DNA of 37,073 nucleotides from a bacterium (GTDB lineage Bacteria > Sysuimicrobiota > Sysuimicrobiia > Sysuimicrobiales > Kaftiobacteriaceae). The first letter of the stretch is position 1. Every line of letters starts with the position of its first letter. The stretch is taken from contig DASUAK010000036.1 of assembly GCA_035763845.1 (NCBI GenBank), forward strand, positions 1 to 37,073, written 5' to 3'. A program made the position numbers and the translations under genes. Shown piece after piece: positions 8,922 through 27,554 of the stretch. The notes under the pieces were generated by a model that made no database searches, was not told the DNA's origin, and was given only the letters and a program-made list of their open reading frames with translations.

Positions 8922-10375
8922 CCGCCCCCCGCCGGCCCAGCATCGTCGTGATCGGGGCAGGCATCACCGGCCTGACCGCCTCGCGCGTCCTGCGCGAGGC
9001 GCTGGTGCACGGCGGCGCGGGCGAGGTGACGCTGATCGAAGCCGCTCCGCAGCTGGGGGGCAAGATCCTCACCGAGCGGGTCGGCGGCTTCCTGATCGAG
9101 GGGGGTCCGGACTCCTTCCTGACGCTGAAACCGCAGGCGGTGGAGCTGGCGCGCGAGCTGGGCCTCGGTGACCGCCTGGTCGGCACGCTCGACCCGCGGC
9201 ACGTCTTCATCCTGCACCGGGGGCGCCTGCACCCGCTGCCGGAGGGGCTGGCTTCGCTGATCCCGCAGCGCCTCGGCCCCTTCATCCGCAGCCGCCTGTT
9301 CACGCCGTGGGAGAAGGCCCGCTTCGGGTTGGACCTGCTCATCCCGCCGTCGCCCAACGGCACCGACGAGGCGCTCGGAAGCTTCGTGAGGCGGCGGCTC
9401 GGTCAGGCCGCGGTGGAGCGGCTGGCCGGTCCGCTCCTGGCGGGGATCCACGCCGGCGACATCGAGGAGCTGAGCCTGCGCGCGACCTTTCCTGCCCTTG
9501 CCGAGGCCGAGCGCCGCTACGGGAGCCTGACGCGCGCCGTGCTCGCCCGCCGCCGCGCGCCGGCCCGTTCGGGCGGCCGGATCGGAGCAGAGGGGGCATC
9601 GCCGGGCGGGTCGATGTTCATGACGCTGCGGGGCGGTCTCCGGGAGCTGGTGGACCGCGCCGCCGACCTGCCCGGCGTCGCCGTGCGGACGCAGACTGAC
9701 GTTCGGACGATCGAGCGCCGCGGTGAGCGATATCTGGTGCGCGTCGAGGGCGCGGAGGCCATCGAGGCGGACGTGGTCGTGGTCACGGTGCCGGCCAACG
9801 CCGCCGCGGTGGTGCTGCGCGATCTCAATCCGCCCGCCGCGGATCTGGCGGCCACGGTGCCGCACGTCTCCACAGCCGCTGTCGCCTTCGGATTCCGCCG
9901 CGCCGACGTGCGCCATCCGCTTGCCGGCCACGGTTACGTGGTGGGGTCAGGCGAGGGGATGGCGCACACCGCGGCCACGTGGGTCAGCTCGAAGTGGCCC
10001 GACCGCGCCCCCGAGGGCTACGTGCTGCTGCGCTGCTTCACGGGACGGGCCGGAGAGCAGCAGGCCCTGGCGCTGGACGACGGCGCGCTGGCCGAAGCCC
10101 TGCTGGCCGAGGTGACCCCGCTGCTCGGCATCACGGGCGCTCCCGAGCTCACCCGCGTCTATCGCTGGAACGCCGCGATGCCGCAGTATACGCTCGGCCA
10201 TCTCGAGCGCGTCGCGGCGCTGCGCCGGGCCCTCGAAGCGACGCCCGGGATCATCGTCGCCGGAGGGGGGTACGGCGGCGTGGGCCTCCCCGACTGCATC
10301 CGGCAGGGCAGGGAAGCGGCGGCCGAGGCGCTGCGGCTTGCATCCCCGCCCGCGCTGGAGGCGGTGGAGCGATGA
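8918..10375 (+). CDS. hemY: HemY-type FAD oxidase (coproporphyrinogen/protoporphyrinogen oxidase, CgoX)
   Basis: GTG at 8918 forms a GTGA overlap with hemH. IVVIGAGITGLTA is the FAD dinucleotide motif. About 485 aa, and the C-terminal GGYGGVGLPDCIRQG is typical of HemY. Confidence 0.9.
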   Translation: MTAPRRPSIVVIGAGITGLTASRVLREALVHGGAGEVTLIEAAPQLGGKILTERVGGFLIEGGPDSFLTLKPQAVELARELGLGDRLVGTLDPRHVFILHRGRLHPLPEGLASLIPQRLGPFIRSRLFTPWEKARFGLDLLIPPSPNGTDEALGSFVRRRLGQAAVERLAGPLLAGIHAGDIEELSLRATFPALAEAERRYGSLTRAVLARRRAPARSGGRIGAEGASPGGSMFMTLRGGLRELVDRAADLPGVAVRTQTDVRTIERRGERYLVRVEGAEAIEADVVVVTVPANAAAVVLRDLNPPAADLAATVPHVSTAAVAFGFRRADVRHPLAGHGYVVGSGEGMAHTAATWVSSKWPDRAPEGYVLLRCFTGRAGEQQALALDDGALAEALLAEVTPLLGITGAPELTRVYRWNAAMPQYTLGHLERVAALRRALEATPGIIVAGGGYGGVGLPDCIRQGREAAAEALRLASPPALEAVER

Positions 10376-13364: not shown

Positions 13365-14921
13365 ATGCCGCCCGTCCCCGTGGCCGCGGAGTTCGAGATC
13401 CCGGAGCGCTCCGGGGAGGTGCTGTGCCTGCCGCCCGGCGCCGCCGTCCCCGCAGCGGCGGAGGCCAACCGGCGTGCTCTCGACGCTGCGCCCGTGCGGA
13501 TGGGCGGGATGCCGCTCGCGCAGCTGCGCCGCGAAGCCCGCCGCGACGCGCTCCACGCGGCCAACACCTATGCCGCGGAGCTGGGCCTGCCCGCCTGCGA
13601 CCCGCGCGATCCGCGTCCGCTGATCGGCACGGGCCACCAGCCCTTCCTCTTCCATCCCGGCATCTGGGCGAAGCACCTGCTCGCCGCCCGGCTCACCGAC
13701 TCCGCCGTGGCGCTGAACATGCCGGTGGACTGCGACGCCGCCGAGGACATCGGGGCGGACGCGCCGCACCTCGACGGGGGGCTGAGCATCGTTCACGAGA
13801 CGCTCCTGCGCGCCGATCCCGAGGTGCCCTACGAGGTGATCGCGCCGCCGGCGGAGGACGTCTGGCTGGCCTTCCTGCGCCGCCTCGACGAGCACCTCCA
13901 GACGCTGCCGCATCGCGGCACCCACGACGTCTTCGCGGGATTCGTGGAGCGCACGCGGGGGCTGCGCGCCCCGGACATCGGTTCCTTCCTCACGCTGGCC
14001 CGGCGCCGCCATGAGGGCTCCACACCGTACGGGGAACTGCCCGTATCGCGGCTCGCCGCGGGCGGTCCCTTCCGGCTCTTCACGCTCCACCTCATCAGCG
14101 AGGCGGAGCGCTTCGCCGGCGTCTACAACGCGCAGCTGAACGCCTATCGCGAGCGCCAGAACATCCGCACGCCGGCCCAGCCGTTCCCGGACCTCGACCG
14201 CGCGGGCGATCGCGTCGAGCTGCCGTTCTGGGTGATCCACGGCGGCCGGCGGCGTCCGATGTACGCGGCGCACCAGGGGAGCCGGTACCGGCTCTGGGCG
14301 GGTGATGCCGAGCTCGCCGTGATCGCGGGAGGGGAGCCGGAGGAGCTCGCGCCCTTTGCGATCCGGCCCAGGGCCCTCGCCCTCACCGCCTTCACCCGCC
14401 TGTGCGTGGTGGACCTGTTCATCCACGGAGTGGGCGGCGGGCGCTACGACCGGGTCACGGACGGTGTCATCGCGGAGTTCTTCGGGATCGCTCCGCCGGT
14501 CTACGCGGTCGCGTCGGCGACGCTGCACCTGCCCCTGAGCGAGTTCGACCCGAGCGAGGAGCGCGGCACGCTGCAGCGCCGCCTCCTCGCGCTGCTGCAC
14601 AATCCGGAGCGGACGCTGCCCGAGCCTACGAGCGAGCAGCGCGTGTGGATCGAGCAGAAGTGGACCCTGATCCGCCGCCTCGAGGGCAATACCCTGACAC
14701 GCCGGGAGCGGCGCGAAGCGACGCAGCGCATCCGGGAGATCAACGAACGTCTGAGCGGCGCGCTCGCGCAGGAGCGGGGCGCTCTGGAGCACCGTCTGGC
14801 CGCCCTCGGCGAGGTCAGGGCGGCCTCCGCGGCCGCCGCGCACCGCGGCTATCCGTTCTGCTTCTTCCCGCCGCGCTCGGTCGAGGCCCTGGTGGACGCC
14901 ATGATGACGGAGCGCCGATGA
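13365..14921 (+). CDS. hypothetical 518-aa protein, possible distant BshC-like (cysteine-adding enzyme family) protein
   Basis: ATG at 13365, 5 nt after the deacetylase stop. IGTGHQPFLFHPGIWAKHLL resembles the BshC GGQQAGLLTGPLYTIHK segment, and a downstream acidic VDCDAAED compares with BshC GEDHD. The size and a C-terminal coiled-coil-like, Arg/Glu-rich region also fit BshC. The assignment is by eye only. Confidence 0.55.
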   Translation: MPPVPVAAEFEIPERSGEVLCLPPGAAVPAAAEANRRALDAAPVRMGGMPLAQLRREARRDALHAANTYAAELGLPACDPRDPRPLIGTGHQPFLFHPGIWAKHLLAARLTDSAVALNMPVDCDAAEDIGADAPHLDGGLSIVHETLLRADPEVPYEVIAPPAEDVWLAFLRRLDEHLQTLPHRGTHDVFAGFVERTRGLRAPDIGSFLTLARRRHEGSTPYGELPVSRLAAGGPFRLFTLHLISEAERFAGVYNAQLNAYRERQNIRTPAQPFPDLDRAGDRVELPFWVIHGGRRRPMYAAHQGSRYRLWAGDAELAVIAGGEPEELAPFAIRPRALALTAFTRLCVVDLFIHGVGGGRYDRVTDGVIAEFFGIAPPVYAVASATLHLPLSEFDPSEERGTLQRRLLALLHNPERTLPEPTSEQRVWIEQKWTLIRRLEGNTLTRRERREATQRIREINERLSGALAQERGALEHRLAALGEVRAASAAAAHRGYPFCFFPPRSVEALVDAMMTERR

Positions 14922-15616
14922 GCGCGCCGGCCCGCCCGCTGCTCGACGTCCGGGCCGTCTCAAAGTCCTATGCGGGACGCGCGGCGGTGCGCGACGTCTC
15001 GCTGTCGGTGGAGACGGGAGGGGTGCTCGCGCTGCTCGGTCCGAACGGCGCGGGCAAGAGCACCCTGCTCCGGATCGCCGCGGGCATCGCCCGGCCCGAC
15101 GCGGGCGAGGTCCGCATCGGGGACCGGCCGGTGCGAGAGGCCGCGGCCCGTCGCCGGATCGGCGCTGCGGGGCACCTGTCCTTCCTCTATGGATATCTCA
15201 CGGTGGAGGAGAATCTCGCTCTCTACGCGCGGCTCTACGGTGTCGGTCGGGAGCGGGTCGAGGACGCGCTGGCGGCCTTCGCACTGCTCCCGCACCGGAC
15301 GAAGCCGGTGCGGGAACTCTCCCGCGGCCTGGTGCAGCGGGCGAGCCTGGCGCGCGCCCTGCTGCACGATCCGGCCGTCCTGCTCCTGGACGAGCCCTTC
15401 ACGGGGCTGGACGCGGAAGCGTCCGCCGCCTGCCGCAGGCGGATCCGCACGCTGCGCGACCGCGGATGCGCGATCGTGATGGCCACGCATGCCTGGGCAG
15501 ACGCGCAGGAGCTGGCGGATGAGGCCGTCGTGCTAGCGGGGGGACGGCTGGCACTGCGGGAAGCCGCCTCGGCGCTGGACCTTGCGCGCGTGGCCGCACT
15601 CTACCGGACCGCATGA
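14918..15616 (+). CDS. ccmA: haem exporter ABC ATPase CcmA
   Basis: ATG at 14918 forms an ATGA overlap with the upstream stop. Walker A GPNGAGKST, signature LSRGLVQRASLARAL, Walker B LLLDEP. Followed by ccmB and ccmC. Confidence 0.85.
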   Translation: MSAPARPLLDVRAVSKSYAGRAAVRDVSLSVETGGVLALLGPNGAGKSTLLRIAAGIARPDAGEVRIGDRPVREAAARRRIGAAGHLSFLYGYLTVEENLALYARLYGVGRERVEDALAAFALLPHRTKPVRELSRGLVQRASLARALLHDPAVLLLDEPFTGLDAEASAACRRRIRTLRDRGCAIVMATHAWADAQELADEAVVLAGGRLALREAASALDLARVAALYRTA

Positions 15617-16260
15617 GCACCTTCTGGATCCTGCTGCGCAAGGACCTCGCCGTCGAGGGCAGGGGACGGGAGATGCTTCCGGCGATGGCGCTGCTCGCCC
15701 TGCTGCTGCTCGCTCTCACAGGCGCCTCCGGCCTCCGCCTGGACGGCGCGCCCGCCATCCTCTGGATCACAGTGGCGGTGGCCGCGGCGAGCGGGCTGGG
15801 GCGCAGCTTCCTCCGGGAGACCGACCAGGACCAGCTGCAGGGCCTGCACCTGGCCGCGGTCGATCCCGCCGTGCTCTACCTCGCGAAGGCCGCGGCGAAC
15901 TTCCTCATCGTCGCCGTGGTGGAGCTCGTCGCCGTGGCGGCGATCTTCGTCTTCTTCGATGCGCCGCCGCCGGCGGACGCGGGCGCGCTCGCCGCGGTGC
16001 TCCTCCTCGGCACCGCGGCCCTGGTCAGTCTGGGGACGCTGCTGGGCGGGATGCTCGCCGCCGCGCGCATGCGCGAGGCGCTGCTGCCCCTGCTGCTGCT
16101 CCCGCTCGGGGCGCCGGCCGTGATGGCGGCCTCCGGGGCGACGGCGCGGCTCCTCACCTCCGGCGGCTCCGCCGCCGGCGAGATCCGGCTTCTGCTCGCC
16201 TTCACCCTGTTGTTCGTCGCGGCCTCGGTGCTCGTCTTCGAGCACGTCATCGAGGAGTAG
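15613..16260 (+). CDS. ccmB: haem exporter membrane protein CcmB
   Basis: 215 aa and 6-TM-like. N-terminus LLRKDLAVEGRGREML is typical of CcmB. ATGA overlap with ccmA. Confidence 0.85.
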   Translation: MSTFWILLRKDLAVEGRGREMLPAMALLALLLLALTGASGLRLDGAPAILWITVAVAAASGLGRSFLRETDQDQLQGLHLAAVDPAVLYLAKAAANFLIVAVVELVAVAAIFVFFDAPPPADAGALAAVLLLGTAALVSLGTLLGGMLAAARMREALLPLLLLPLGAPAVMAASGATARLLTSGGSAAGEIRLLLAFTLLFVAASVLVFEHVIEE

Positions 16261-16281
16261 CCCCGGCAGGCGCCGAAGCCG

Positions 16282-16944
16282 ATGATTCCGGGGGTTATGC
16301 GGATGCTGCTGGTGCTGGCTGCCGTCGCCGTTCCCGTCGGCCTCGCGCTCGCGCTGTTCGTCGCTCCGGTGGAAGCGTTCCAGGGTGAGCCGTACCGCAT
16401 CCTGTACGTCCACGTGCCGAGCGTCGCCACAGCCTACCTCGCCTTCACGGTGACGTTCGCGGCGAGCGTGGCCTACCTCATCACGCGCCGCGGACGCTTC
16501 GACCGGTTGGCCGGCGCCTCCGCGGAGATCGGGCAGGTGTTCCTCACCGTCGTGCTGCTGACGGGGCCGATCTGGGGGAAGCCGGTGTGGGGCGTGTGGT
16601 GGACCTGGGACGCGCGCCTGACCACGGCGCTGATCCTCTGGTTCATCTTCGCGGGGTACCTCATGCTGCGCGCCTGGTCCGGTGCGCAGGGGGCGAGGGC
16701 GGCCGCGGTCGTCGCCATCGTCGGATTCCTCGACGTGCCGCTGATCCACTGGTCCGCTGTGCTGCTGCGGACCCTCCATCCCCGGCCCACGGTCTTCCGG
16801 CCCGAGGGGCCGGCGCTGCCGGGGTCGATGCTCGTGGTGCTCCTCTTCAACATCGCGGCCTTCGTCCTCACCTATCTCGCCTTCCTCACGGTGCGCGTCC
16901 GCCAGGAGGCGGCCCGGGAGCAGCTGTCGCAGGCCGGGCCATGA
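16282..16944 (+). CDS. ccmC: haem exporter / haem-handling protein CcmC
   Basis: YVHVPSVATAYL and the Trp-rich WWD motif WGKPVWGVWWTWDARLTT. 220 aa. Confidence 0.9.
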   Translation: MIPGVMRMLLVLAAVAVPVGLALALFVAPVEAFQGEPYRILYVHVPSVATAYLAFTVTFAASVAYLITRRGRFDRLAGASAEIGQVFLTVVLLTGPIWGKPVWGVWWTWDARLTTALILWFIFAGYLMLRAWSGAQGARAAAVVAIVGFLDVPLIHWSAVLLRTLHPRPTVFRPEGPALPGSMLVVLLFNIAAFVLTYLAFLTVRVRQEAAREQLSQAGP

Positions 16945-17054
16945 CGTACGTCGCGGCGGCGTATCTCGTCACGGTCGGCATCCTCGGAGCGTACGCGCTC
17001 TCGCTCTGGCTCCGGCAGCGGTCGCTGCGCCGCCCGCGCGGGGACGGCCGGTGA
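16941..17054 (+). CDS. ccmD: small single-TM protein, CcmD-like
   Basis: ATG at 16941 forms an ATGA overlap with ccmC. The 37 aa MTYVAAAYLVTVGILGAYALSLWLRQRSLRR are one TM helix plus a basic tail. Position between ccmC and ccmE matches ccmD. The following gene starts with a GTGA overlap. Confidence 0.55.
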   Translation: MTYVAAAYLVTVGILGAYALSLWLRQRSLRRPRGDGR

Positions 17055-17440
17055 GGACCTCGCGGAAGCTGGTCGTCGGGCTGGCCGTGATCGTCGCGGC
17101 GATCGGCGCCGTCGCGTACAGCGGCATCCGCTCCGCCGCCGTGTACTACCTCACGCCCACCGAGTTCGCGGGCCGCGCCGACCTGCGATCGGCGCAGGTG
17201 CGGCTCGCGGGCACGGTGGAGGCGGGCACCGTCCGCCGCGACGGCGGGCGGGTCACCGGCTTCCGTCTCAGCGACGGCACCACGGCGATCGACGTCCGCT
17301 ACGGCGGTCCGCTGCCCGACCTCTTCGCGGAGGGCCGCGAGGTCCTCGTCGAAGGGCGCCTCCGGGACGGCGCGCTCGATGCGACGAGGGTCATCACCAC
17401 CCACCCCACCGAATACAAGGAAGGATCTCCCCGGCCGTGA
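17051..17440 (+). CDS. ccmE: cytochrome c haem chaperone CcmE
   Basis: 129 aa. N-terminal TM anchor, AVYYLTPTEF, an OB-fold-like body, and the C-terminal HxxxY haem-binding motif (THPTEY). Confidence 0.85.
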   Translation: MRTSRKLVVGLAVIVAAIGAVAYSGIRSAAVYYLTPTEFAGRADLRSAQVRLAGTVEAGTVRRDGGRVTGFRLSDGTTAIDVRYGGPLPDLFAEGREVLVEGRLRDGALDATRVITTHPTEYKEGSPRP

Positions 17441-19437
17441 CGGCCCTTGGAAGCTTCGCCCTGTACGCCGCACTCGTCGTAACGCTCTACGGGCTGGCCG
17501 CCGGGATCCTGGGGCTGCGGCGACGCGATCCGGTGCTGCTCGAGTCGTCACGCCGCGCCGTCGCGGGATGGGCGGGGTGCATCGCCCTGGCTGCGGCCGC
17601 GCTCCTGTACGCGCTGGTCACGCGGGACTTCTCCATCCGGTTCGTCGCGGAGACGACCAGAGCCGACCTTCCGCTGCTCTATGCCGTGACGGCCTTCTGG
17701 GGCGGGCACGCCGGCTCGCTGCTGCTGTGGGCCCTGGTCCTCGCGCTCTACGGCGCGGTCGCCGCCTCATCCGGCCTGCGGCGCCTGCCGGCGGCGCCCA
17801 TCGTCTTCCTGGTGCTGCTCGGCACCGCGGCGTTCTTCACGCTGATCCTCGCCGCCTCCGGCAACCCCTTCGAGGCGCTGCGCATCCCGCCGCCGGACGG
17901 TCGGGGGCTCAACCCGCTCCTCCGCAATCCGTGGATGGCCGCGCATCCACCCGCGCTGTACCTCGGGTTCGTGGGGACGACGGTGCCGTTCGCTCTGGCT
18001 GTCGCGGCGCTCGCCTCCGGCGATCCGGACGGCGCCACCCTCCGCGCGGCGCGTCCCTGGGTCCGTCTCGGCTGGCTCTTCCTCACGGTGGGGCTGCTCT
18101 TCGGCGCGAAGTGGTCGTACGTCGTGCTGGGGTGGGGCGGCTATTGGGCCTGGGATCCTGTCGAGAACGCGGCGCTGATGCCCTGGCTGACCGGCGCGGC
18201 GTACCTGCACTCGGTCCAGGTCTTCGAGCGCGACGGCACGCTCCGCCGCTGGACCGCCGGCCTGCTGATGCTCTCCTTCGCGCTGGCCATCCTCGGCACG
18301 TTCCTGACGCGCAGCGGCGTGCTCAGCTCGGTCCACGCCTTCGCCAACTCGAGCGTCGGGCCGTACTTCGTGGTGTTCCTCGCGTTTTTGGTCGCCGGAT
18401 CGGCCGCCCTGCTCCTCCGACGGCGCCGGGATGCCGGCGCCGCGGATGCCGGCGCCGGCGGGCAGATCGATTCCCTGCTCAGCCGCGAGGCCGCCTTCCT
18501 CGCCAACAACGTGCTGCTCGTCACCGCCGCGGGCGCGGTGCTGCTCGGCACGCTCTTCCCCATCCTGGCCGAGGTCGTGACGGGCGATCGCATCAACGTC
18601 GGTCCCCCGTACTTCAACCAGGTGTTGCTGCCCGTCGTCGTCCTGCTGCTGCTCCTCATGGCGGTCGGCCCGCTGCTGTCCTGGCGCCGCTCCGACCCGC
18701 GCGAGATGGGCGTGCTGCTGGCCGCGCCCGGGGCGCTCGGTGCGCTGGCCGCCCTAGGGGGGGCGGCTCTGGGTATCCGCCATCCGGCTGCACTGCTCAT
18801 CGGGGCCCTCTGCGTCTTCACCGCGGCCGCGACGGTGGTGGAGGCCGGCCGCGGCGCGGAGGTCCGCCGGCGGCGCGGTGATGCCCTGCCGGTGGCGCTG
18901 GTCCGGGTCGCCGCCCGGGCGCGGACGCGCTACGGGGGCTACCTCGTGCACCTCGGGCTCCTCATCATGCTTGCCGGCATCACGGGGTCTTCCGTCTTCA
19001 CGACGCAGACACAGACCGCCCTTCGGCCCGGCGAGCGCGTGCGCCTCGGTCGCTACGAGGTGCGTTACGATGAGGTCAGCGCCGTCGAGGGAGCCGGCCT
19101 CACGGTGACGGCGGCGGCGCTCACCGCCTTCGACGGGCGGGGCGCGGTGTCGCTCGAGGCGCGGCACGTGCACCACCGCGCGCAGGATGCGATCACGGCC
19201 GAGGTGGCGATCCACAGCACGTGGCGCGACGACTTGTACGTGGTGCTGATCGGGTTGTCCGGCGACCGTCGCGCGACGTTCCGCATCCTCCTGAACCCCA
19301 TGGTCGCCTGGCTGTGGGCGGGGGCGGCGCTCATGGTCGCCGGCGGGACGATCGCGGCGCTCCCGGCCCGCCGCCGGGTGTCGCCGGGCGTCCTGGAGGA
19401 CGCCCGGCAGAGCGCGCAGCCGGAGTTGGTCAGATGA
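17437..19437 (+). CDS. ccmF: cytochrome c haem lyase subunit CcmF
   Basis: 666 aa and polytopic. WWD motif WGGYWAWDPVENAALMPWL. GTGA overlap with ccmE. Confidence 0.95.
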   Translation: MTALGSFALYAALVVTLYGLAAGILGLRRRDPVLLESSRRAVAGWAGCIALAAAALLYALVTRDFSIRFVAETTRADLPLLYAVTAFWGGHAGSLLLWALVLALYGAVAASSGLRRLPAAPIVFLVLLGTAAFFTLILAASGNPFEALRIPPPDGRGLNPLLRNPWMAAHPPALYLGFVGTTVPFALAVAALASGDPDGATLRAARPWVRLGWLFLTVGLLFGAKWSYVVLGWGGYWAWDPVENAALMPWLTGAAYLHSVQVFERDGTLRRWTAGLLMLSFALAILGTFLTRSGVLSSVHAFANSSVGPYFVVFLAFLVAGSAALLLRRRRDAGAADAGAGGQIDSLLSREAAFLANNVLLVTAAGAVLLGTLFPILAEVVTGDRINVGPPYFNQVLLPVVVLLLLLMAVGPLLSWRRSDPREMGVLLAAPGALGALAALGGAALGIRHPAALLIGALCVFTAAATVVEAGRGAEVRRRRGDALPVALVRVAARARTRYGGYLVHLGLLIMLAGITGSSVFTTQTQTALRPGERVRLGRYEVRYDEVSAVEGAGLTVTAAALTAFDGRGAVSLEARHVHHRAQDAITAEVAIHSTWRDDLYVVLIGLSGDRRATFRILLNPMVAWLWAGAALMVAGGTIAALPARRRVSPGVLEDARQSAQPELVR

Positions 19438-20093
19438 GGTCGATGCTTGTCGCCATTGTCATTGCGCTCGCGCCGATCGCTGCAGCTGCGGCGCCATCGC
19501 CGCCGGCACCGCCGGGGGTGGACATCGGCCTCCTCCTGCTCGCCGTCGACGCGAAGCGCGATCATCTGCGCGTCTCCGAAGCGCTGCGGCTGAGCAACAC
19601 CGGTCCGGCCCGGACGCTCGAGCTGCGCGTCCCGCTGCCGGAAGGGGCCGCGTATCTCGCCGTGCATCGCGGGATCGAGCGGTGGCTGCGCACCGCCGGC
19701 GGGTTCACCGCGGTCCTGCGCGTGCCCGCGGGCATTTCCGAGGTGGCGTACAGCTACGCGCTGCCGAGCGGACGCACCGCGGTGATGATCCGCTCCTTCC
19801 CGCTGCGCGTGCAGCGGCTGGAGGTCGTAGCGCGCGGGCGCGGGGTGGGGCTCGAGCTCGACGGCGGCGGGCCCGTCGACGCCGTTCTCCTGGGCGCCGA
19901 AACACTGCCGCGGTGGGAGGTCCGGGCGCTGCCGGCGGGCGAGCCGGTCACGATCCTGCTCGATCGTCTCCCCGTTTCGCATCCGTGGCTCCCCGCCGCG
20001 GGCGCGTCCGGGATCGCCGTGGTCCTGGGGACAGGGCTGATCAGGCACCTCCGCCGTGGCCCGCCGCCGGGGGAGGAGACCTCCAGCCGGTGA
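19434..20093 (+). CDS. hypothetical exported protein with C-terminal TM anchor (no Cys)
   Basis: ATG at 19434 forms an ATGA overlap with ccmF. Signal-like N-terminus MRSMLVAIVIALAPIAAAAA, then a beta-rich body, then a C-terminal hydrophobic helix plus RHLRRG. No CxxC and no recognisable family. Confidence 0.55.
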   Translation: MRSMLVAIVIALAPIAAAAAPSPPAPPGVDIGLLLLAVDAKRDHLRVSEALRLSNTGPARTLELRVPLPEGAAYLAVHRGIERWLRTAGGFTAVLRVPAGISEVAYSYALPSGRTAVMIRSFPLRVQRLEVVARGRGVGLELDGGGPVDAVLLGAETLPRWEVRALPAGEPVTILLDRLPVSHPWLPAAGASGIAVVLGTGLIRHLRRGPPPGEETSSR

Positions 20094-21013
20094 AAGAACC
20101 CATAGTGCTTGGTATGTTGGGTCCCACCCGCCCGCTGTTCGCCCTGCTGGTGACCGGGTCACTGTTCGCTGCCGCGTGCCAGCCGACGGTCAACATCTCC
20201 CGCGCCACGGCGCGCGTCGCATCACCCGGACCGGCGCCGGCCGAGGAGCGCCTGGTGCCGGTGCGCCCCTCCGCGATCGAGGGACGGCGCGTCTTCCAGC
20301 GGGCGCAGTGCGTGGTCTGCCACGGGCCGGAGGGCCTGGGCAACGGCCCGGCCGCGGCGAACCTGAAGTCCCCCGGCAAGAATCTGATGACCGACTTCTT
20401 CCGCCTGCTCGGGATCCGCCTCCGGGGTGAGCAGCTGCCCAGCCGTCCCGCGAACTTCCACAACACGGTGGCGATGCGGCTGAACAGCCCGTTCAGCATG
20501 TACGAGACGGTGACGCGCGGCCGGCCGCACACCGCGATGCCCGCCTTCCCGCCGCGGGGCGGCAAGCCCGCGTACGGCGCGAGCTCCTTCGGCGTGAACC
20601 TCACGGACGCGGAGCGGTGGCACGTTATCTTCCACGAGTGGACCTACCAGAGCACGCCGGCGGAGATCCGGACCGGCCGGCGGCTCTACGAGACGAAGCG
20701 GATCGCCGTGGAGGGCACGGCGCTGACCTGCGCCTCCTGCCACGGGACGGCGGGCGATGGGCGCGGGCCGCGCGGGGCGGAGCTCTCCCGCGAGCTGTGG
20801 CACTGGGCGCGCGGGCAGGGCCCCGGTATCTTCACCGACATCAACCTGATGGCGCAGCGCAAGCCCACCGAGCTGTACCAGGCCATCATCGACGGCCGCG
20901 GGCGGATGCCGGCCTACCGCGGCAAGCTCACCGAAGAGGAGCTGTGGGCGCTGGTCAACTACCTCTACACCTTCGTCTACGACTACCCGTGGGAGGAGGG
21001 GGCCGGGCGGTGA
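20090..21013 (+). CDS. dihaem c-type cytochrome, probable lipoprotein
   Basis: Two CxxCH motifs (CVVCHG, CASCHG), each followed by a Met-ligand context (TAMPAF, GRMPAY). Lipobox-like LFAAAC. Start is either GTG 20090 (GTGA overlap) or ATG 20114. Confidence 0.85.
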   Translation: MKEPIVLGMLGPTRPLFALLVTGSLFAAACQPTVNISRATARVASPGPAPAEERLVPVRPSAIEGRRVFQRAQCVVCHGPEGLGNGPAAANLKSPGKNLMTDFFRLLGIRLRGEQLPSRPANFHNTVAMRLNSPFSMYETVTRGRPHTAMPAFPPRGGKPAYGASSFGVNLTDAERWHVIFHEWTYQSTPAEIRTGRRLYETKRIAVEGTALTCASCHGTAGDGRGPRGAELSRELWHWARGQGPGIFTDINLMAQRKPTELYQAIIDGRGRMPAYRGKLTEEELWALVNYLYTFVYDYPWEEGAGR

Positions 21014-21016
21014 GGG

Positions 21017-21040
21017 CGCGAATGGTTGCGCGCATTCGCG
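21017..21040 (+). other. intercistronic inverted repeat (8-bp stem CGCGAATG / CATTCGCG, 8-nt loop)
   Basis: Read directly in the 50-nt gap between the cytochrome c stop and the Rieske start. No U-tract follows, so it is more likely an mRNA processing or stability element than a terminator. Confidence 0.3.
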
Positions 21041-21063
21041 GCGGCGCGGTATCGTGAAGCGGG

Positions 21064-21732
21064 ATGGATGAGACCTCGTCGCCGCAGCTGAAGCGCCGCG
21101 CCTTCCTCAAGGCGGCCACGGCCGTGCCGGTTGTGGCCGCCCTGGGGGCGCTTGCGTCCCCGCTGCTGCGGCTGCTGAAGCCGAACGTGCCGAAGATGGG
21201 CGTGCTCGCCCCCACGGCGCAGGACGTGGCCCGGGGCGAGGTCACCGTGGCCGCCACCCTGGCGGACCTGCGGCAGCCCTGGGACTACAAGTACTTCGTC
21301 TTCACGCAGCGCTACCCGCAGTACACGTCCGATGGGTTCAAGACCGCCAACGTCCCCGGTGTGGCCATCCGGCTGCCGTACAAGATCCGGCTCCCCCTGG
21401 CCTGGGCGCAGACGATCGGCAAGGAGCCCAAGGTGACGGAGAGCGACATCGTCGTCTTCTCGCGCATCTGCCCGCACCTGGGCTGCATCTACAACTACGT
21501 CCCGAACTGGCGCGAGGTCAGCGCGGGCTACGGGGGCTATGTGCCGCCGCAGCAGCGCCAGCACGCCCTGCTGGCCTGCCCGTGCCACCTCAGCATCTAC
21601 GATCCCGCGGACCAGGCCCAGCCCGGCCGCGTTCTCTCCGGACCCGCGCCGCGCCCGCCCCGGACCTTCCTCTTCGAGCTCCAGGGCGAGCGGATCGTCG
21701 TCACCGACGTCGAGCCGGGCGGGATCGCCTGA
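21064..21732 (+). CDS. qcrA: Rieske [2Fe-2S] iron-sulfur protein with Tat signal
   Basis: Twin-arginine motif KRRAFLKAATAV. Cluster boxes CPHLGC and CPCHLS, including both extra disulfide cysteines. 222 aa. Confidence 0.9.
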   Translation: MDETSSPQLKRRAFLKAATAVPVVAALGALASPLLRLLKPNVPKMGVLAPTAQDVARGEVTVAATLADLRQPWDYKYFVFTQRYPQYTSDGFKTANVPGVAIRLPYKIRLPLAWAQTIGKEPKVTESDIVVFSRICPHLGCIYNYVPNWREVSAGYGGYVPPQQRQHALLACPCHLSIYDPADQAQPGRVLSGPAPRPPRTFLFELQGERIVVTDVEPGGIA

Positions 21733-21737
21733 CGCCC

Positions 21738-22877
21738 ATGTGGGACCGCCTGCGCGACTGGACCCGCGAGCGCCGCGAGAAGCTCGACCTCTTCGACGAG
21801 ACGCTGGTGGCCCGCCAGGCCAACCCGATGTTCCTGCTGGGGCCGCTGCTCTACTACTTCTGGATGATCACCGTGGTCAGCGGCGTCGTGCTGATGATCT
21901 GGTACGAGCCGACGACCACCGGGGCGTTCAGCTCCATCGACCGCATCCAGCACGAGGTGCCGCTGGGCTGGCTTATCCGCGGGCTGCACAAGTACGCCGC
22001 GGACGGCGTGATCGTGACGATCATCCTGCGGATCTACCGGATGTACTTCCTCGGGGAGTACAAGAAGCCGGGCGAGCTGTCCTGGATCCTCGGCTTCCTG
22101 GGCCTGATCCTGGCGATGATCTCCGGGATCACCGGCTACCTGCTGATCTGGAACCAGCGCGCCTTCTGGGCGGCGAAGACGGTGCTCACCGTGCCGGTGT
22201 ACTTCGACGAGATCCCCGTGCTCGGGCCGATGGGCTTCGGCTCGATGATCGCCTACATCTTCCTGGGCGGGCCGGCCGTGGGCCAGGCCACGATCACGCG
22301 CTTCTACGCCCTGCACTTCGGGATCTCACTCGTCCTGTTGATCCTGATCGAGGTCTTCTTCCAGCGCACGCGGCGCAAGCGCATCAGCATGTCGCTGCTG
22401 CCGATGATCCTCTTCCTCGTGATGCTGGTCGTGATCAGCTACGTCCTGCCCGCCGAGTCCGGCCGGCGCGCCGACCCGACGCGCACGCCGCTGCCCATCC
22501 TCTCGGACTGGTACTTCCTGGCCCTGTACCAGTACGTCAAGTACACGCCCCCGCTGTGGGCGGGCCTCGGGCCGGGGCTGCTCATCGGTTTCGGCATGCT
22601 CGTGCCGTTCCTCGATCGCAGCAAGGGCCGCCGGCCGCTGGAGCGCCCGTTCTTCTTCGTCGTCGGCGTCATGGCGCTGCTGTACTTCCTGGTCTTCACG
22701 GTGCTGATCTTGTTCAACATCGCGGTGATCGAGCGCGAGCCGTTCATCGTCATGAACCTCACGCTGCTCGTACTGGCCGCGGCCCTGGTCTGGGAGGTCC
22801 GCCACCGCCGCCGCCGGCGCGCCCTGGCCGCCCGGCCGCCCGCTCCGGCGCCGGGACGCGCCGCGGCGCACGGCTGA
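21738..22877 (+). CDS. qcrB: cytochrome b (fused b6 + subunit-IV-like, 379 aa), variant lacking both n-side haem His ligands
   Basis: ATG at 21738. WLIRGLHKYAADG (helix B), ITGYLLIWNQRAFWAAK and ITRFYALHFG (helix D) are cytochrome b/b6 signatures. PILSDWYF occupies the PEWY position. Confidence 0.9.
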   Translation: MWDRLRDWTRERREKLDLFDETLVARQANPMFLLGPLLYYFWMITVVSGVVLMIWYEPTTTGAFSSIDRIQHEVPLGWLIRGLHKYAADGVIVTIILRIYRMYFLGEYKKPGELSWILGFLGLILAMISGITGYLLIWNQRAFWAAKTVLTVPVYFDEIPVLGPMGFGSMIAYIFLGGPAVGQATITRFYALHFGISLVLLILIEVFFQRTRRKRISMSLLPMILFLVMLVVISYVLPAESGRRADPTRTPLPILSDWYFLALYQYVKYTPPLWAGLGPGLLIGFGMLVPFLDRSKGRRPLERPFFFVVGVMALLYFLVFTVLILFNIAVIEREPFIVMNLTLLVLAAALVWEVRHRRRRRALAARPPAPAPGRAAAHG

Positions 22878-22878
22878 C

Positions 22879-23139
22879 GTGCGAGTCCTCTCGATGGTCG
22901 GGGCCTTCATCGTGGCGATGTGGGCGGTCGGCGGGGGATGGGCGGCCCTGCGCGGGGTCTGGTCGTCCCCCACGGCCGCGGGGGGTGCGGCGGTCGCCGC
23001 GTACACTGCCGCCTTCCTGGCTGCGTTCATCTATCTGGCCTTCTGGGTCTACGCCGCCGACCGGGCCGCGGGCAAGGTCCGGCGGCCGATCGGGCTGTAC
23101 GAGCGCATCCTGAACCGGAGGGGTCCGGGGCATGCGTAG
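22879..23139 (+). CDS. hypothetical small membrane protein (2 TM)
   Basis: GTG at 22879, 1 nt after the cytochrome b stop (or ATG 22894). 86 aa with two hydrophobic helices. GC3-rich frame. No homology recognised. Confidence 0.4.
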   Translation: MRVLSMVGAFIVAMWAVGGGWAALRGVWSSPTAAGGAAVAAYTAAFLAAFIYLAFWVYAADRAAGKVRRPIGLYERILNRRGPGHA

Positions 23140-23332
23140 CGCCTACGCGCTGGGCATCGTGCTGCTGTCAGCGCTCGCCCTGCTGTTCGCGGTGGGGATC
23201 GTCTACGGCGAGATCGGCGACCGCTGGTTCTTCGGCGGCGGCATGATCGGAGCGCTGCTGCTGGCCTACTCCTTTATCGTCCTGTTCCTGCGGAAGTTGG
23301 GGATCATCGGGCCACGGAAGGCGGAGCGATGA
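23132..23332 (+). CDS. hypothetical small membrane protein (2 TM)
   Basis: ATG at 23132 overlaps the previous ORF by 8 nt. 66 aa with two clear TM helices (ALGIVLLSALALLFAVGIVY, MIGALLLAYSFIVLFL). Its stop overlaps the next start (ATGA). Confidence 0.45.
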   Translation: MRSAYALGIVLLSALALLFAVGIVYGEIGDRWFFGGGMIGALLLAYSFIVLFLRKLGIIGPRKAER

Positions 23333-24537
23333 GTCTGACGGCGGGCGCCCCCAGGCCGGCGGAGGCACCGCGCGGGCGGTACGGCCGCGCCATGACGGCG
23401 CTGCTGCGCGGCACCCTGCGGCTGGACGTTCTCATCAACAAGCTGTATCCGACCGACTACAACCCGCTCTACTACACGGGCGGGCTGGCCAACCTCTTCC
23501 TGTTCGTGCTGGTGCTCTCCGGCATCTTCCTCTTCTTCTACTATGAAGCGAGCCTCGGCGGGGCGTTTGCCTCGGTCCGCTACATCACGGAGGGCGTGCC
23601 CTACGGGGGCATCATCCGCGGCATCCACCGCTACGCGGCGGACGGCTTCATCGTGGCGGTCCTGCTGCACCTGTTCCGCAACTGGTTCACCGACCGCTAC
23701 CTCTTCAGCCGCGACAACCCCTGGATCTCGGGGATGTTCCTGCTCGCCTTCGGCGGGTTCGTGGGCTTCACCGGCTACCAGCTCGTCTGGGACGAGCGGG
23801 CGCAGGTTCTGACCAGCCTGTTCCTCGGCATGCTGCGCAGCATCCCCTGGGCGGGCGAGGCGCTGGCCCGCGCGTTCCTCGGCGGCGGGGGGGTGGGGGA
23901 CAGCACGCTGGTGCGCGTCCTCTTCCTGCACGTCGCGCCGGCCTCGGTGCTGTACGTGCTGCTCTGGTGGCACTACACGCGCGTCCGCCATCCGAAGATC
24001 TGGCCGCCCGCGGTGTGGGTCCTGCTCTGCCTGGGCCTGGTCTTCCTGCTGGCCGGCGCGCTGCCGGCCACCAGCGGCCCGCCGGCCACCCCCGCCGGGC
24101 AGCCCGCGAGCTTCCCCATGGACGTCTTCTTCCTGCTGCCGTTCTGGCTGGTGAACTGGCTGCCCGCGGGCGCGGTCGTCTTCCTGCTCGCCGTCCTCCT
24201 CGTGCTCGGCTTCATCATCCCATACGCCGGAGCGCGCGAGCGGCCGGAGGGGATGGAGGTGCGCCACGCCGGCGTGGCCCAGGTCATCGACGGGAACTGC
24301 ACCGGCTGCGAGCTGTGCTACTTCGACTGCCCGTACAACGCCATCGTGATGGCGTCCTCGCCGGCGCCGGGGCTGTCGCGGGCCGCGGCCAACCGCACCC
24401 TGCTGGCTGTCGTCCTCGAGTCGCGCTGCGTGGAGTGCGGGATCTGCATCGGGGCCTGCCCCTTCGAGGCGCTCGAACTGCCGCGCTTCCTGGAGCGCGA
24501 CGTGAAGCAGCTCGTCGCGGAGGCGGTGGGGGCATGA
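23329..24537 (+). CDS. cytochrome b (four-His, dihaem type) fused to a C-terminal 2x[4Fe-4S] ferredoxin domain
   Basis: IIRGIHRYAADGFIVAVLLHLFRNWF has H100/H114 and VLFLHVAPASVLYVLLWWH has H201/H215, both at canonical 14-residue spacing. FTGYQLVWDERA is also cytochrome b-like. Two more TM helices follow. The C-terminal domain carries CTGCELCYFDCP and CVECGICIGACP (CxxCxxCxxxCP twice). Confidence 0.85.
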   Translation: MSLTAGAPRPAEAPRGRYGRAMTALLRGTLRLDVLINKLYPTDYNPLYYTGGLANLFLFVLVLSGIFLFFYYEASLGGAFASVRYITEGVPYGGIIRGIHRYAADGFIVAVLLHLFRNWFTDRYLFSRDNPWISGMFLLAFGGFVGFTGYQLVWDERAQVLTSLFLGMLRSIPWAGEALARAFLGGGGVGDSTLVRVLFLHVAPASVLYVLLWWHYTRVRHPKIWPPAVWVLLCLGLVFLLAGALPATSGPPATPAGQPASFPMDVFFLLPFWLVNWLPAGAVVFLLAVLLVLGFIIPYAGARERPEGMEVRHAGVAQVIDGNCTGCELCYFDCPYNAIVMASSPAPGLSRAAANRTLLAVVLESRCVECGICIGACPFEALELPRFLERDVKQLVAEAVGA

Positions 24538-24992
24538 GCGCCTTCCCGAAGGTCGTCGGATTCGTGTGCGACTGGAGCGTCGATCTGACGCCTCTGCTGG
24601 ACGGCGGAGCGCTGCGCGACGTGCCCGGCGTGCGGATCATCCGCGTGCCGTGCTCGGGGTTCATACGCCCGAGCTGGCTCGAGGACGCGCTGTCCGGCGG
24701 GGCCGACGGCGTCTTCGTCACGGGCTGCCCCTACGGAGACTGCCTGAACCGCGAAGGCAACTACCTCATGCGCGACCGGATCGACCAGCTGCAGCGCCGC
24801 CTGGTTCGCCGGCGGACGGATCCGGCCCGGCTGGGCATGCTCGCGCACGGGCTGCACGACGGGGACGCCTTCCTGGCCGAAGTGCGCGAGTTCGTCCGGC
24901 GGCTGGAGGCGCTGGCGGCCGCGCCGCCCGCCTCCGCCGGGCGCCCCGCGCGTGCGGCCAAGCCGGCTCCGGCGGAGGGAGACCCGGCGTGA
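24534..24992 (+). CDS. MvhD/FlpD-like iron-sulfur protein (methyl-viologen-reducing hydrogenase delta-subunit family)
   Basis: ATG at 24534 forms an ATGA overlap with the upstream stop. VVGFVCDWS...VRIIRVPCSGFIRPSWLEDALSGGADGVFVTGCPYGDCLNREGNYLMRDR matches the FlpD/MvhD domain pattern with its four conserved Cys. No signal peptide. Ala/Pro-rich tail. Confidence 0.75.
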   Translation: MSAFPKVVGFVCDWSVDLTPLLDGGALRDVPGVRIIRVPCSGFIRPSWLEDALSGGADGVFVTGCPYGDCLNREGNYLMRDRIDQLQRRLVRRRTDPARLGMLAHGLHDGDAFLAEVREFVRRLEALAAAPPASAGRPARAAKPAPAEGDPA

Positions 24993-25096
24993 AGCGGCTG
25001 CCCCCCAAGGTCATCGCGGCCTACGTCCTTTACTACATCCTCTGGTTCCTGCTGCTGACGTTCGTGGCCTCATTCGGTTTGATCGCCGAGACCTGA
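24989..25096 (+). CDS. possible 35-aa single-TM peptide
   Basis: GTG at 24989 forms a GTGA overlap with the upstream stop. VKRLPPKVIAAYVLYYILWFLLLTFVASFGLIAET is a basic N-terminus plus one TM helix. Supported only by coupling and hydrophobicity. Confidence 0.3.
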   Translation: MKRLPPKVIAAYVLYYILWFLLLTFVASFGLIAET

Positions 25097-25133
25097 GGAA
25101 AAGTCTATCGCGACATCACGGAGGAGGGCGTCA

Positions 25134-25532
25134 ATGCGTCATCGTGTGGTCCTGGCAGGACTGCTCCTGTTCGCTGCGGGCCTGGCGGTCGCCTGCGGGC
25201 CCGGGGGCGGCGGGGGGCAGGGCGGCGGCGAAGGACAGCCGGGCGGCGGCGGGACCGGCGGAGCCGGCGGGACGGTGAACGTCACGGAGAGCGAGTGGGC
25301 GATCCGCATTCCGGCCGACGTGCCCTCCGGTAAGGTCACCTTCACCGTCAAGAACGACGGGGCCGTGGAGCACAACTTCGTCATCCAGGAGACCAGCCAG
25401 CGCCTGGACGGGATCCAGCCCGGACAGACGAAGACCATCCAGGCCACGCTGCAGCCGGGTACGTATACCGTCGTGTGCGACATCCCCGGGCACAGCGAGG
25501 CCGGGATGACGACCACGATGACCGTCAAGTAA
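25134..25532 (+). CDS. type-1 copper cupredoxin (plastocyanin/auracyanin-like), probable lipoprotein with Gly-rich tether
   Basis: GGAGGAGGG SD upstream. Signal plus LAVAC lipobox-like site, then GPGGGGGQGGGEGQPGGGGTGGAGG as a linker. T1-Cu ligand pattern H (VEHNF) ... C-x2-PGH-x3-GM (VVCDIPGHSEAGM). Confidence 0.85.
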   Translation: MRHRVVLAGLLLFAAGLAVACGPGGGGGQGGGEGQPGGGGTGGAGGTVNVTESEWAIRIPADVPSGKVTFTVKNDGAVEHNFVIQETSQRLDGIQPGQTKTIQATLQPGTYTVVCDIPGHSEAGMTTTMTVK

Positions 25533-26579: not shown

Positions 26580-27554
26580 GTGCCCGCTCCGGTCGCCGTC
26601 ACGGGGGCAGGAGGCTTCGTCGGGAGCCGCCTCGTCCGACGTCTGCGCGGCGCGGGCACGGCGGTGCGGGCCGTCATCCGCGCCGCCCGGGATGCGGAGC
26701 CGCTGCGGGCCCTCGGCTGCGAGGTGGCCGTGGCGGACGTGACGGACCGGGCCGCTCTCGCCGCGGCCTTCTCCGGATGCCGGGCGGCCGTGCACCTCGC
26801 GGCCATCATCAGGGAGCGGGACGGGCTCACTTTCGACGCCGTCAACCATCAAGGAGCGGCGAACGCCGCGGCGGCCGCGGCCGCCTCCGGCATCGGGCGG
26901 TTCGTCCATCTGAGCGCGCTCAGGGCCTCGCCCGAGGCGGCGCGCTACCTCCGCTCCAAGTGGCAGGGTGAGGAGGCGGTGCGGCGCAGCGGCCTGCCGG
27001 CCGTGATCTTCCGGCCGTCCGTCCTCCTCGGTCCCGGGGGCGGGGCCGCGGCGCAGTTCGCGGACGTCGTGCGGTACGGGCTCTGGTATCCGGTGGTGGG
27101 CGGGCGTGTGCCGGGGCGCCGCCTGGCCGGAACGCTGGCCGCGCTCACGCCGTTCGTGCCGGTGCTCGGAGACGGGCGGTACACCTCGATGCCGGTTGCC
27201 CTCGACGACGTCCTGCCCGCCGTCGCGGCCGCCCTCGAGCGTGACGACGTGCTGGGCGGTACCTTCGAGATCGGGGGGCCGGAGGTCCTGACCTACGACG
27301 AGCTGGTCAGGCGGGTGGCGGCGGTGCTGGGGCTGCGGCGCGTCCTGTGGCACCTGCCCATGCCCGCGGCCCGGGGGCTGCTGCGCCTCTTCGCGCTGCT
27401 GCCCGACCCGCCGATCACCCGGGACGAGTTCGACGCGCTGCTCGTCGACAACGTGTGCGATCCAGCTCCGGCCGTCCGCGCTTTCGGGCTCCGGCTACGG
27501 CCGGTCGAGCAGGCGCTGCGCGAGGCGCTCACCCCGTCCGGGGAGAAAACGTAG
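26580..27554 (+). CDS. SDR-family NAD(P)-binding protein (atypical epimerase/NmrA/NDUFA9-like)
   Basis: GTG at 26580. VAVTGAGGFVGSRLVRRL is a Rossmann GxxGxxG motif. About 324 aa. The ORF-track start at 26205 overlaps the previous gene and is rejected. Confidence 0.75.
   Translation: MPAPVAVTGAGGFVGSRLVRRLRGAGTAVRAVIRAARDAEPLRALGCEVAVADVTDRAALAAAFSGCRAAVHLAAIIRERDGLTFDAVNHQGAANAAAAAAASGIGRFVHLSALRASPEAARYLRSKWQGEEAVRRSGLPAVIFRPSVLLGPGGGAAAQFADVVRYGLWYPVVGGRVPGRRLAGTLAALTPFVPVLGDGRYTSMPVALDDVLPAVAAALERDDVLGGTFEIGGPEVLTYDELVRRVAAVLGLRRVLWHLPMPAARGLLRLFALLPDPPITRDEFDALLVDNVCDPAPAVRAFGLRLRPVEQALREALTPSGEKT

Follow-up and report, generated by a model that had tools for sequence, protein, structure and literature searches.

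The 37,073-nt stretch of DNA analysed here (contig DASUAK010000036.1 of assembly GCA_035763845.1, from a bacterium of the Sysuimicrobiota; hereafter the window) contains, from 20114 to 25532 and entirely on the + strand, an operon in which a Rieske protein is encoded together with two different cytochromes b. The genes are, in order, those of a di-haem c-type cytochrome, the Rieske protein, a long cytochrome b, two small hydrophobic proteins (sm1 and sm2), a cytochrome b that continues in frame into a ferredoxin-type domain (the cytochrome b-Fer4 fusion), an MvhD/FlpD-type [2Fe-2S] protein, a short membrane peptide (sm3) and a cupredoxin. This order, with the last two as optional members, is kept in the orthologous genome loci and in 80 metagenome loci. 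The fusion (23329..24537, + strand, 402 residues, ATG start) appears to be equipped for two b haems and two [4Fe-4S] clusters, the long cytochrome b lacks the ligands of its inner haem (bH), and it is this pairing that suggests a path for electrons through the complex.

The first part of the fusion is a di-haem, b6-like core (residues 37-220, nt 23437-23988), covered by the Pfam family Cytochrome_B (PF00033, E=8.4e-27, 94.7 bits against a cut-off of 27.2). It is followed by helices E-F (residues 228-300, nt 24010-24228) and by a 2x[4Fe-4S] domain (residues 311-385, nt 24259-24483), which is matched by the Fer4 dicluster families of Pfam (best E=1.7e-10), with Fer4, Fer4_21, Fer4_7 and Fer4_9 all above their own cut-offs. 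A first-pass annotation, made from the letters of the DNA, had described a four-His cytochrome b and two CxxCxxCxxxCP motifs in one 402-residue open reading frame, with His100/His114 and His201/His215 both at 14-residue spacing, the stretch FTGYQLVWDE, and the cluster motifs C324TGCELCYFDCP and C367VECGICIGACP; each of these was confirmed, and every residue number that it cited is exact. The eight Cys of the C-terminus (C324-x2-C327-x2-C330-x3-C334-P and C367-x2-C370-x2-C373-x3-C377-P) are the predicted ligands for two [4Fe-4S] clusters. Among solved structures cytochrome b6 is the nearest (6rqf_I, E=3.3e-27), and all four haem ligands align with it, His100, His114, His201 and His215 of the fusion corresponding to His86, His100, His187 and His202 of b6; the four are invariant in alignments of 53 and of 65 sequences. 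Cys35 of b6, the haem cn ligand within CxGG, aligns with Tyr49 of the fusion (YTGG), a Tyr in 64 of the 65 orthologues, and no third haem is therefore expected. Judged by its sequence, the fusion is a b6-type cytochrome b with six transmembrane helices and ligands for two b haems. It was matched by bc1/b6-type models only, and by no NarI/HdrE-type cytochrome b model of Pfam or NCBIfam. A curated family name was not obtained, as no NCBIfam model reached its cut-off; the best partial matches were to ExtP, to b6 and to the C-terminus of HdrA2, which the combined Fer4 and MvhD unit resembles.

An AlphaFold2 model of the fusion, built on the 53-sequence alignment (pLDDT 85.9, pTM 0.83), places helices A-D first, then helices E (228-244) and F (280-300), and then the Fe-S domain, in agreement with the two additional membrane helices that the annotation had put between the core and the clusters. 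The best Foldseek matches of this model are cytochrome b chains of bc1 (probability 1.00, 280-350 aligned columns). Lys and Arg number 15 in the 83 residues of the predicted inner segments against 4 in the 97 residues of the outer ones, and because positive charges are concentrated in this way the Fe-S domain is predicted to face the cytoplasm (the n-side), as had also been proposed; the co-encoded MvhD-type protein, which has no signal peptide, is in keeping with this placement.

On the opposite, p-side face, the register equivalent to the PEWY motif of the quinol-oxidising (Qo) site is M264-D265-V266-F267, for which relatives carry x-D-W-F. The annotation had read a replacement of PEWY by PMDVFF and had concluded that the subunit may not oxidise quinol, but that reading is out of register by one residue and leaves the conclusion unsupported; the motif is of the x-D-W-F type and its Asp is invariant in the 53-sequence alignment and present in 64 of 65 orthologues. 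The Trp position is Trp in 23 and Val in 39 of the 65, and both Asp and Phe are kept in the protein of the window. Since the Asp is invariant, the p-side pocket of the fusion is regarded as conserved. Invariant residues in the 53-sequence alignment, which includes both split forms and triple fusions (those in which MvhD is part of the same polypeptide), are the four His, Arg97, Arg101, Trp154-Asp155, Arg218, the eight Cys and Asp265. On the n-side, bc1-type His/Asp ligands of the quinone-reducing (Qi) site are not conserved family-wide in these alignments, nor is the haem cn Cys. His221, near a bc1 Qi-ligand position, is kept in 63 of 65 Sysuimicrobiota sequences, while the triple fusions have Arg or Lys there. 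As conserved Qi-type ligands were not found, the Fe-S wire may replace, or supplement, quinone reduction at this site.

Could the fusion have arisen from an assembly error or a frameshift by which two separate genes, one for a cytochrome b and one for a ferredoxin, were run together, as the annotation had advised checking? Homologues without interruption, 58-87% identical, were found in 65 species-level genomes, which bear the label Armatimonadetes/Armatimonadota, that of 'Bacillati bacterium ANGP1' or the names of genera of Candidatus Sysuimicrobiota (CSP1-3), and the single frame is also intact at 58 metagenome loci and in distant lineages at 37-46% identity, so that the fusion is genuine and an artefact can for practical purposes be dismissed. 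Both domains, cytochrome b and Fer4, were found together in more than 120 protein clusters.

The partner cytochrome b and the operon

The long cytochrome b (21738..22877, + strand) has both the N-terminal and the C-terminal domain (PF00033, E=1.7e-33, plus PF00032). It retains the ligands of haem bL, His85 and His194, whereas the bH positions are occupied by Arg99 and Phe208; in the alignment with 6rqf_I, His100 of b6 is replaced by Arg and His202 by Phe, and no substitute His is present in the bH-ligand helices. The Qo motif, LSDWYF, is strictly conserved. Both bH His are absent in 55 of 55 genome orthologues and in 80 of 80 metagenome orthologues, with Phe (or Tyr/Leu) at the helix-D position; the metagenome scan, run with an alignment of the long cytochrome b, gave close relatives only (at least 59% identity), and provides a larger sample over the same phylogenetic reach. 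Six long cytochromes b that seemed to bear the His were found to be the fusion paralogue, taken up from loci without the upstream gene. Wherever at least 2.3 kb of downstream sequence was available (58 of 58 bH-less genes), the fusion follows. The same operon was also found, at ~43% identity, in three distant lineages (L085-L087), among them a metagenome-assembled genome of Armatimonadota UBA10988. These are the lineages in which the identity of the fusion falls to the lower range given above; cbb3 oxidase genes precede the Rieske gene there, and in the long cytochrome b the helix-B site is again Arg, the helix-D site being His, Tyr and Tyr. This degree of conservation speaks for clear purifying selection on the long cytochrome b gene, which is always accompanied by the fusion.

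It is unusual for a cytochrome b of a Rieske operon to have lost its bH ligands, because haem ligands are nearly universally conserved; Kao & Hunte found all four to be 100% conserved in 166 representative cytochromes b, with one archaeal exception (PMC4122944). Neither this loss in the neighbouring cytochrome b nor the overlapping MvhD gene had been mentioned in the first-pass annotation. In canonical bc1 and b6f complexes each cytochrome b has both bL and bH and forms a homodimer, whereas in the operon described here two cytochromes b are encoded by different genes. Heterodimeric Rieske/cytochrome b complexes were sought in the literature, and those that turned up were all engineered, none natural.

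The gene for the MvhD/FlpD-type protein (24534..24992, + strand, 152 residues) overlaps the stop of the fusion by 4 nt (ATGA). Its product matches the Pfam family FlpD (PF02662, E=8.3e-27, 94.1 bits against a cut-off of 22.3) and the solved MvhD chain 5odc_D (E=6.6e-20), and Cys12, Cys40, Cys65 and Cys70 are each kept in at least 90% of 64 orthologues. The gene is found directly 3' of the fusion at every genome or metagenome locus with enough flanking sequence; neither an Mvh hydrogenase nor an HdrA flavoprotein is encoded beside it within the 37-kb window. Upstream, the stop of sm2 (23132..23332, + strand, 66 residues), a small hydrophobic protein with conserved synteny, overlaps the start of the fusion (ATGA), and downstream the start of sm3 (24989..25096, + strand) overlaps the stop of the MvhD gene (GTGA). 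With three successive 4-nt overlaps (ATGA, ATGA, GTGA), sm2, fusion, MvhD and sm3 are, as read from the DNA, translationally coupled.

The third of the small proteins, sm3, is a 35-residue, single-helix membrane peptide with the C-terminal motif FGLIAET. It was detected at 22 of 65 genome loci, and open reading frames of 43-46 residues with the same C-terminal motif lie at 9564-9695 of L085, 8661-8801 of L086 and 8687-8824 of L087, the motif common to all four lineages being FG(L/V)I(A/S)E(T/V). Relatives of about 690 residues have a transmembrane helix in the corresponding position, after their MvhD domain. A further small hydrophobic protein, sm1 (22879..23139, + strand, 86 residues), has no Pfam match, stands at the same position in most orthologous loci, has similar small counterparts in L085-L087, and is probably a small subunit.

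The Rieske [2Fe-2S] protein (21064..21732, + strand) has a twin-arginine signal and the cluster boxes CPHLGC...CPCHLSIY, with Ser and Tyr both present. Its Pfam Rieske score lies exactly at the gathering cut-off (20.3 bits) and that of TAT_signal below it (16.5 against 22.7 bits); at least 90% of 52 sequences have kept the RR motif and the two cluster boxes. A CPHLGC...CPCH Rieske protein encoded next to cytochrome b, as in these 52 orthologues, is a feature shared with canonical bc1 and b6f complexes.

Two candidate electron carriers of the p-side are encoded at the two ends of the operon. The di-haem c-type cytochrome (20114..21013, + strand), with a lipoprotein signal (LFAAAC), two CxxCH motifs and matches to the Pfam families Cytochrome_CBB3 and Cytochrom_C in two stretches, is encoded 5' of the Rieske gene in many orthologous loci and is probably the p-side electron acceptor of the complex. 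The cupredoxin (25134..25532, + strand; Pfam Cupredoxin_1, SoxE and Copper-bind) is plastocyanin/sulfocyanin-like with a LAVAC lipobox, occurs in about a third of the orthologous loci and is probably a p-side electron carrier. It bears a long Gly-rich tether, and it shares a lipoprotein-type signal with the di-haem cytochrome; such signals on both putative carriers fit membrane-anchored carriers and a monoderm-type cell.

Relatives of the fusion in other phyla

The combination of a cytochrome b with 4Fe-4S clusters is not in itself new. An exhaustive profile search gave 255 representatives at E<=1e-30, and most of those inspected are fusions of cytochrome b with a 4Fe-4S domain, with or without MvhD. 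From about rank 12 onward the matches are proteins of 480-790 residues that align to the whole query, and in the members inspected a FlpD/MvhD domain follows the Fer4 domain in one polypeptide; a few are extended further, by a SCO1 domain at the N-terminus or a cytochrome c domain at the C-terminus. Fusion of MvhD to cytochrome b-Fer4 in other phyla is Rosetta-stone evidence for the predicted partnership of MvhD and the fusion in the window. The triple fusions occur in Thermodesulfobacteriota/Deltaproteobacteria, Nitrospirota, Nitrospinota, Gammaproteobacteria, Sideroxydans and Magnetococcales, and are annotated merely as 'hydrogenase iron-sulfur subunit' or 'cytochrome b N-terminal domain-containing protein'. 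Their neighbours are genes of the haem-copper superfamily, in the order COX2-COX1-haem O synthase-SCO1 at several loci and COX2-COX1-COX3-COX4 at one, and no Rieske gene or second cytochrome b gene was found beside them at the loci examined.

This architecture was catalogued in 2014, its function uncharacterised, when Kao & Hunte described a 'PDWF-FeS' clade of cytochromes b whose gene clusters lack a Rieske protein (PMC4122944). The fusion resembles that clade in having a cytochrome b including the Qo-motif region, followed by the 4Fe-4S domain and MvhD, and a motif x-D-W/V-F with invariant Asp, and it is clearly homologous to the fused forms, with 30-40% identity over the whole length. The PDWF-FeS relatives adjoin haem-copper oxidase or eNOR-type genes and have MvhD fused, whereas in the window the fusion lies in a Rieske operon, MvhD is a separate gene with a 4-nt overlap, and a bH-less cytochrome b stands beside it. 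The annotation's remark that such wiring is unusual therefore holds in part: the architecture is widespread, but the split form, inside a Rieske operon and next to a bH-less cytochrome b, appears to be undescribed so far. We infer that 'subfamily H' of Dibrova et al. corresponds to the same cytochrome b-FeS family, and one protein of this type is in the domain table of PMC8756737. The two papers on the phylum Sysuimicrobiota (PMC11604079, PMC11962464) do not mention the complex.

Ferrigenium straubiae has proteins of the same kind, likened to the family by their described domains and by gene order (COX2-COX1-haem O synthase-SCO1), in its eNOR operon (bioRxiv 10.64898/2026.01.22.701106). The authors of that preprint speculate on a quinol:NAD+ oxidoreductase in a supercomplex with the haem-copper-family enzyme. 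The context differs from that of the window in having an NO reductase, no Rieske protein and a single protein with FAD and NADH domains, and the proposal is itself a genomic and proteomic inference. In the present family, forms of about 690 residues gain a seventh transmembrane helix and a periplasmic domain of about 150 residues, which in shorter forms is a separate downstream open reading frame. This domain (motif Y-x-P-x-G-L-x-x-D-G-x-x-F-x-Y-E) has no Pfam match and may be the 'eNOR scaffold protein' of the Ferrigenium preprint. Helix and domain together occupy the part from residue ~500 to the C-terminus in P0132, P0133, P0353 and others, with a cytochrome c domain added in some relatives, and are encoded separately at 9596-10255 of L077, 9451-9990 of L082 and 8560-9063 of L088. 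At one locus (L080, 8001-13467) a NuoF-like gene (Complex1_51K, NADH_4Fe-4S) lies between two cytochrome b-Fer4-MvhD genes, within a COX2-COX1-CtaB-SCO1 cluster, a hint that the partner of the family may be linked to NAD(H).

Proposed path and direction of electrons

If a cytochrome b has bL only and yet keeps its Qo motif, the second electron of quinol must have somewhere else to go; the co-encoded di-haem paralogue is the only candidate, and the two cytochromes b therefore probably form a heterodimer. In the reading that is preferred here, and that we give about an even chance of being correct, quinol-derived electrons would pass through an obligate heterodimer of the two cytochromes b and leave by way of the Fe-S wire and MvhD. 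The complex would consist of the two cytochromes b, the Rieske protein, the three small transmembrane peptides and MvhD. At its Qo site the long cytochrome b would take two electrons from quinol; the first would go through the Rieske protein to the lipoprotein cytochrome c or cupredoxin and on to an oxidase, and the second through bL of the long cytochrome b, across the dimer interface, to bL of the fusion. Within the fusion it would proceed from bL to bH, through the two [4Fe-4S] clusters, and to the [2Fe-2S] cluster of MvhD, the end acceptor being a soluble cytoplasmic partner, either ferredoxin or else an enzyme of NAD(P)- or HdrA-like type whose gene lies elsewhere. The direction, outward from quinol, is the speculative part, as is the notion of a bifurcation that would give cytoplasmic reductant to autotrophs driven by sulfide or H2. 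The full form of this bifurcation, in which an obligate heterodimer passes electrons of quinol to cytochrome c or cupredoxin and, without a Qi step, to ferredoxin or NAD(P)+, is put forward tentatively and as something that is probably not the case.

Precedent for the individual steps can be found. Inter-monomer transfer from bL to bL sustains turnover of bc1 in engineered, cross-inactivated dimers, in which the electron from Qo in one monomer is delivered to the n-side of its partner (PMC4330944, PMC4152375). Those heterodimers are made of otherwise identical subunits with a Qi site, whereas in the operon a gene duplication would have made a natural asymmetry permanent. Di-haem membrane cytochromes b are coupled to cytoplasmic Fe-S clusters in QmoC, HdrE/HdrD and NarI/NarH, and the Qmo and Hdr systems use MvhD-like domains. 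These share with the fusion the logic of a quinone site, two haems and a cytoplasmic Fe-S chain, and differ from it in the fold family of the cytochrome b. The nearest functional proposal concerns the anammox complexes Kuste4569-4574 and Kustd1480-1485, in which a Rieske protein and a b6-like cytochrome b are likewise joined on the n-side by a module that contains Fe-S clusters. They have Rieske Ser (and Tyr) residues of the kind associated with high potential, and gave rise to the idea (Kartal et al.) that the low-potential Qo electron is sent to a cytoplasmic acceptor and not to a quinone at Qi (PMC12954380). The anammox module on the n-side is an NAD(P)/FAD oxidoreductase subunit of its own, the models show a homodimeric cytochrome b, and hexa- or octa-haem cytochromes are the partners on the p-side; in the window one of two cytochromes b carries the Fe-S domain within its own chain, the other, from a different gene, lacks the bH ligands, and the probable p-side partner is a di-haem cytochrome c. 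Unlike the anammox systems, the relay here ends in MvhD, and the operon, which holds MvhD and the di-haem cytochrome c, has no flavin or NAD domain as judged by Pfam.

Outflow from quinol is favoured for four reasons: it accounts for the loss of bH in the partner cytochrome b, it accounts for the tie of the module to high-potential partners, electrons from sulfide enter the quinone pool of these organisms, which also fix CO2 (PMC11604079), and the Rieske protein bears the Ser/Tyr pair that is associated with high potential (PMC12954380). As to the organisms, sqr was found in 109 Sysuimicrobiota genomes, together with coxABC and CO2 fixation by the reductive glycine pathway, the Wood-Ljungdahl pathway or the Calvin-Benson-Bassham cycle (PMC11604079, PMC11962464). 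Several points weigh on the other side. The heterodimer itself is deduced from gene content alone, and no gene for a cytoplasmic acceptor of the complex (an NAD(P)- or flavin-binding protein, HdrA or a hydrogenase) is present in the 37-kb window. Electron transfer from the p-side to the n-side opposes the membrane potential, and ferredoxin-type clusters usually lie far below haem bH in potential; because the cluster potentials are low, outflow to NAD+ or ferredoxin would be energetically tight. Finally, the fusion retains the conserved Qo-like Asp and could act alone, as its Rieske-less relatives must.

The same heterodimer could be run in reverse, with electrons entering from ferredoxin or NAD(P)H through MvhD and the [4Fe-4S] clusters to bH, where they and electrons from Qo would reduce quinone at a Qi-like site; this would be a ferredoxin:quinone reductase hard-wired into complex III, in the manner of the ferredoxin input proposed for cyclic flow through b6f or of a dehydrogenase set on a cytochrome b anchor. 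Such inflow would be thermodynamically downhill, and it would suit the homology of the MvhD-type protein to 5odc_D, since MvhD serves as the relay for electron input in the Mvh-Hdr system. The NuoF-like, NADH-binding gene between two triple-fusion copies at one locus and the retention of His221 in nearly all Sysuimicrobiota point the same way, and ancestral cytochromes b have been argued to be anchors for Fe-S dehydrogenases (Dibrova et al., PMC5600118). A Qi site is nevertheless not evident, as His221 gives way to Arg or Lys in the triple fusions and has neither an Asp equivalent nor a haem cn Cys beside it, and inflow leaves unexplained both the loss of bH in the partner and the specific tie of the module to Rieske or oxidase operons. 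Inflow is improbable on balance, though a serious competitor.

It is unlikely that the fusion, MvhD and (where present) sm3 form a complex of their own that is merely co-transcribed with the Rieske and cytochrome b genes, functioning as a quinol:cytoplasmic-acceptor or donor:quinone oxidoreductase in a redox loop like that of NarI/NarH, HdrE/HdrD or QmoC. The three-domain relatives have no Rieske or second cytochrome b gene nearby, on the first of which PMC4122944 agrees, and the p-side Asp of the Qo-like motif is invariant in the family; both points speak for such a module. An independent module would, however, deprive the long cytochrome b, with its Qo site kept and its bH ligands lost, of any electron outlet, although that gene is under selection and always accompanied by the fusion; moreover, the gene order, including the Arg substitution, recurs in the distant lineages, and the genes are tightly coupled in translation. 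Export of electrons across the membrane to feed or mature a terminal oxidase, without quinone chemistry, is suggested by relatives in COX2-COX1-CtaB-SCO1 clusters, by one relative with an N-terminal SCO1 domain and others with a C-terminal periplasmic cytochrome c domain, and by the lipoprotein cupredoxin gene 3' of the module, but it is very unlikely, as the conserved Qo-pocket residues (TGYxLVWD and the invariant Asp) speak for quinone chemistry, SCO1 is absent from the operon, and the Rieske protein and long cytochrome b would have no role.

The preferred reading, outflow from quinol through the heterodimer, bears on a question open since the anammox proposal, namely whether bifurcation at a Qo site can yield a low-potential reductant in the cytoplasm. 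The operon would be a simpler and genetically fixed version of that idea, in which the competing route has been lost in the partner, with its own bH, and the Fe-S wire is fused to the haem-bearing cytochrome b; the system is conserved across a phylum of soil and hot springs and in Armatimonadota-like lineages. If the reading is true, it would represent natural catalysis dependent on inter-monomer transfer from bL to bL, so far shown in engineered bc1 only. In the full form of the bifurcation, the one judged probably not to be the case, autotrophs that oxidise sulfide or hydrogen would obtain low-potential reductant with no need of reverse complex I. The operon also gives a first functional handle on the cytochrome b-FeS-MvhD family, widespread but uncharacterised, that adjoins haem-copper oxidases and NO reductases in nitrite-, iron- and sulfur-oxidising bacteria.

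The remainder of the window

Apart from the operon, the window is ordinary chromosome, with genes for haem biosynthesis, ccm, tat, a polyprenyl synthase, mreBCD, PBP2 and rodA. The genes hemA, hemL, hemC, hemB, a radical-SAM gene, hemE, hemH and a hemY-like gene of the amine-oxidase family, then ccmB, ccmC and ccmF, occupy 1-10375 and 15523-19437 (+ strand), and tatA and tatC lie downstream, so that cofactor genes and operon make up a respiratory 'super-cluster'. An open reading frame of 518 residues (13365-14921, + strand) has coding-like GC3 (GC content at third codon positions) and no Pfam match. Between ccmF and the cytochrome c gene is another, of 290 residues (19221-20093, + strand), with an N-terminal hydrophobic segment and likewise no Pfam match, which is found at the same place in many Sysuimicrobiota loci. 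An NmrA/SDR-type (short-chain dehydrogenase/reductase) gene for an NAD(P)-binding protein (26586-27554, + strand) is situated 1.6 kb downstream, and in about half of the orthologous loci follows the polyprenyl synthase gene; it may be comparable to sdrA of Acidithiobacillus pet operons and to the complex I subunit NDUFA9.

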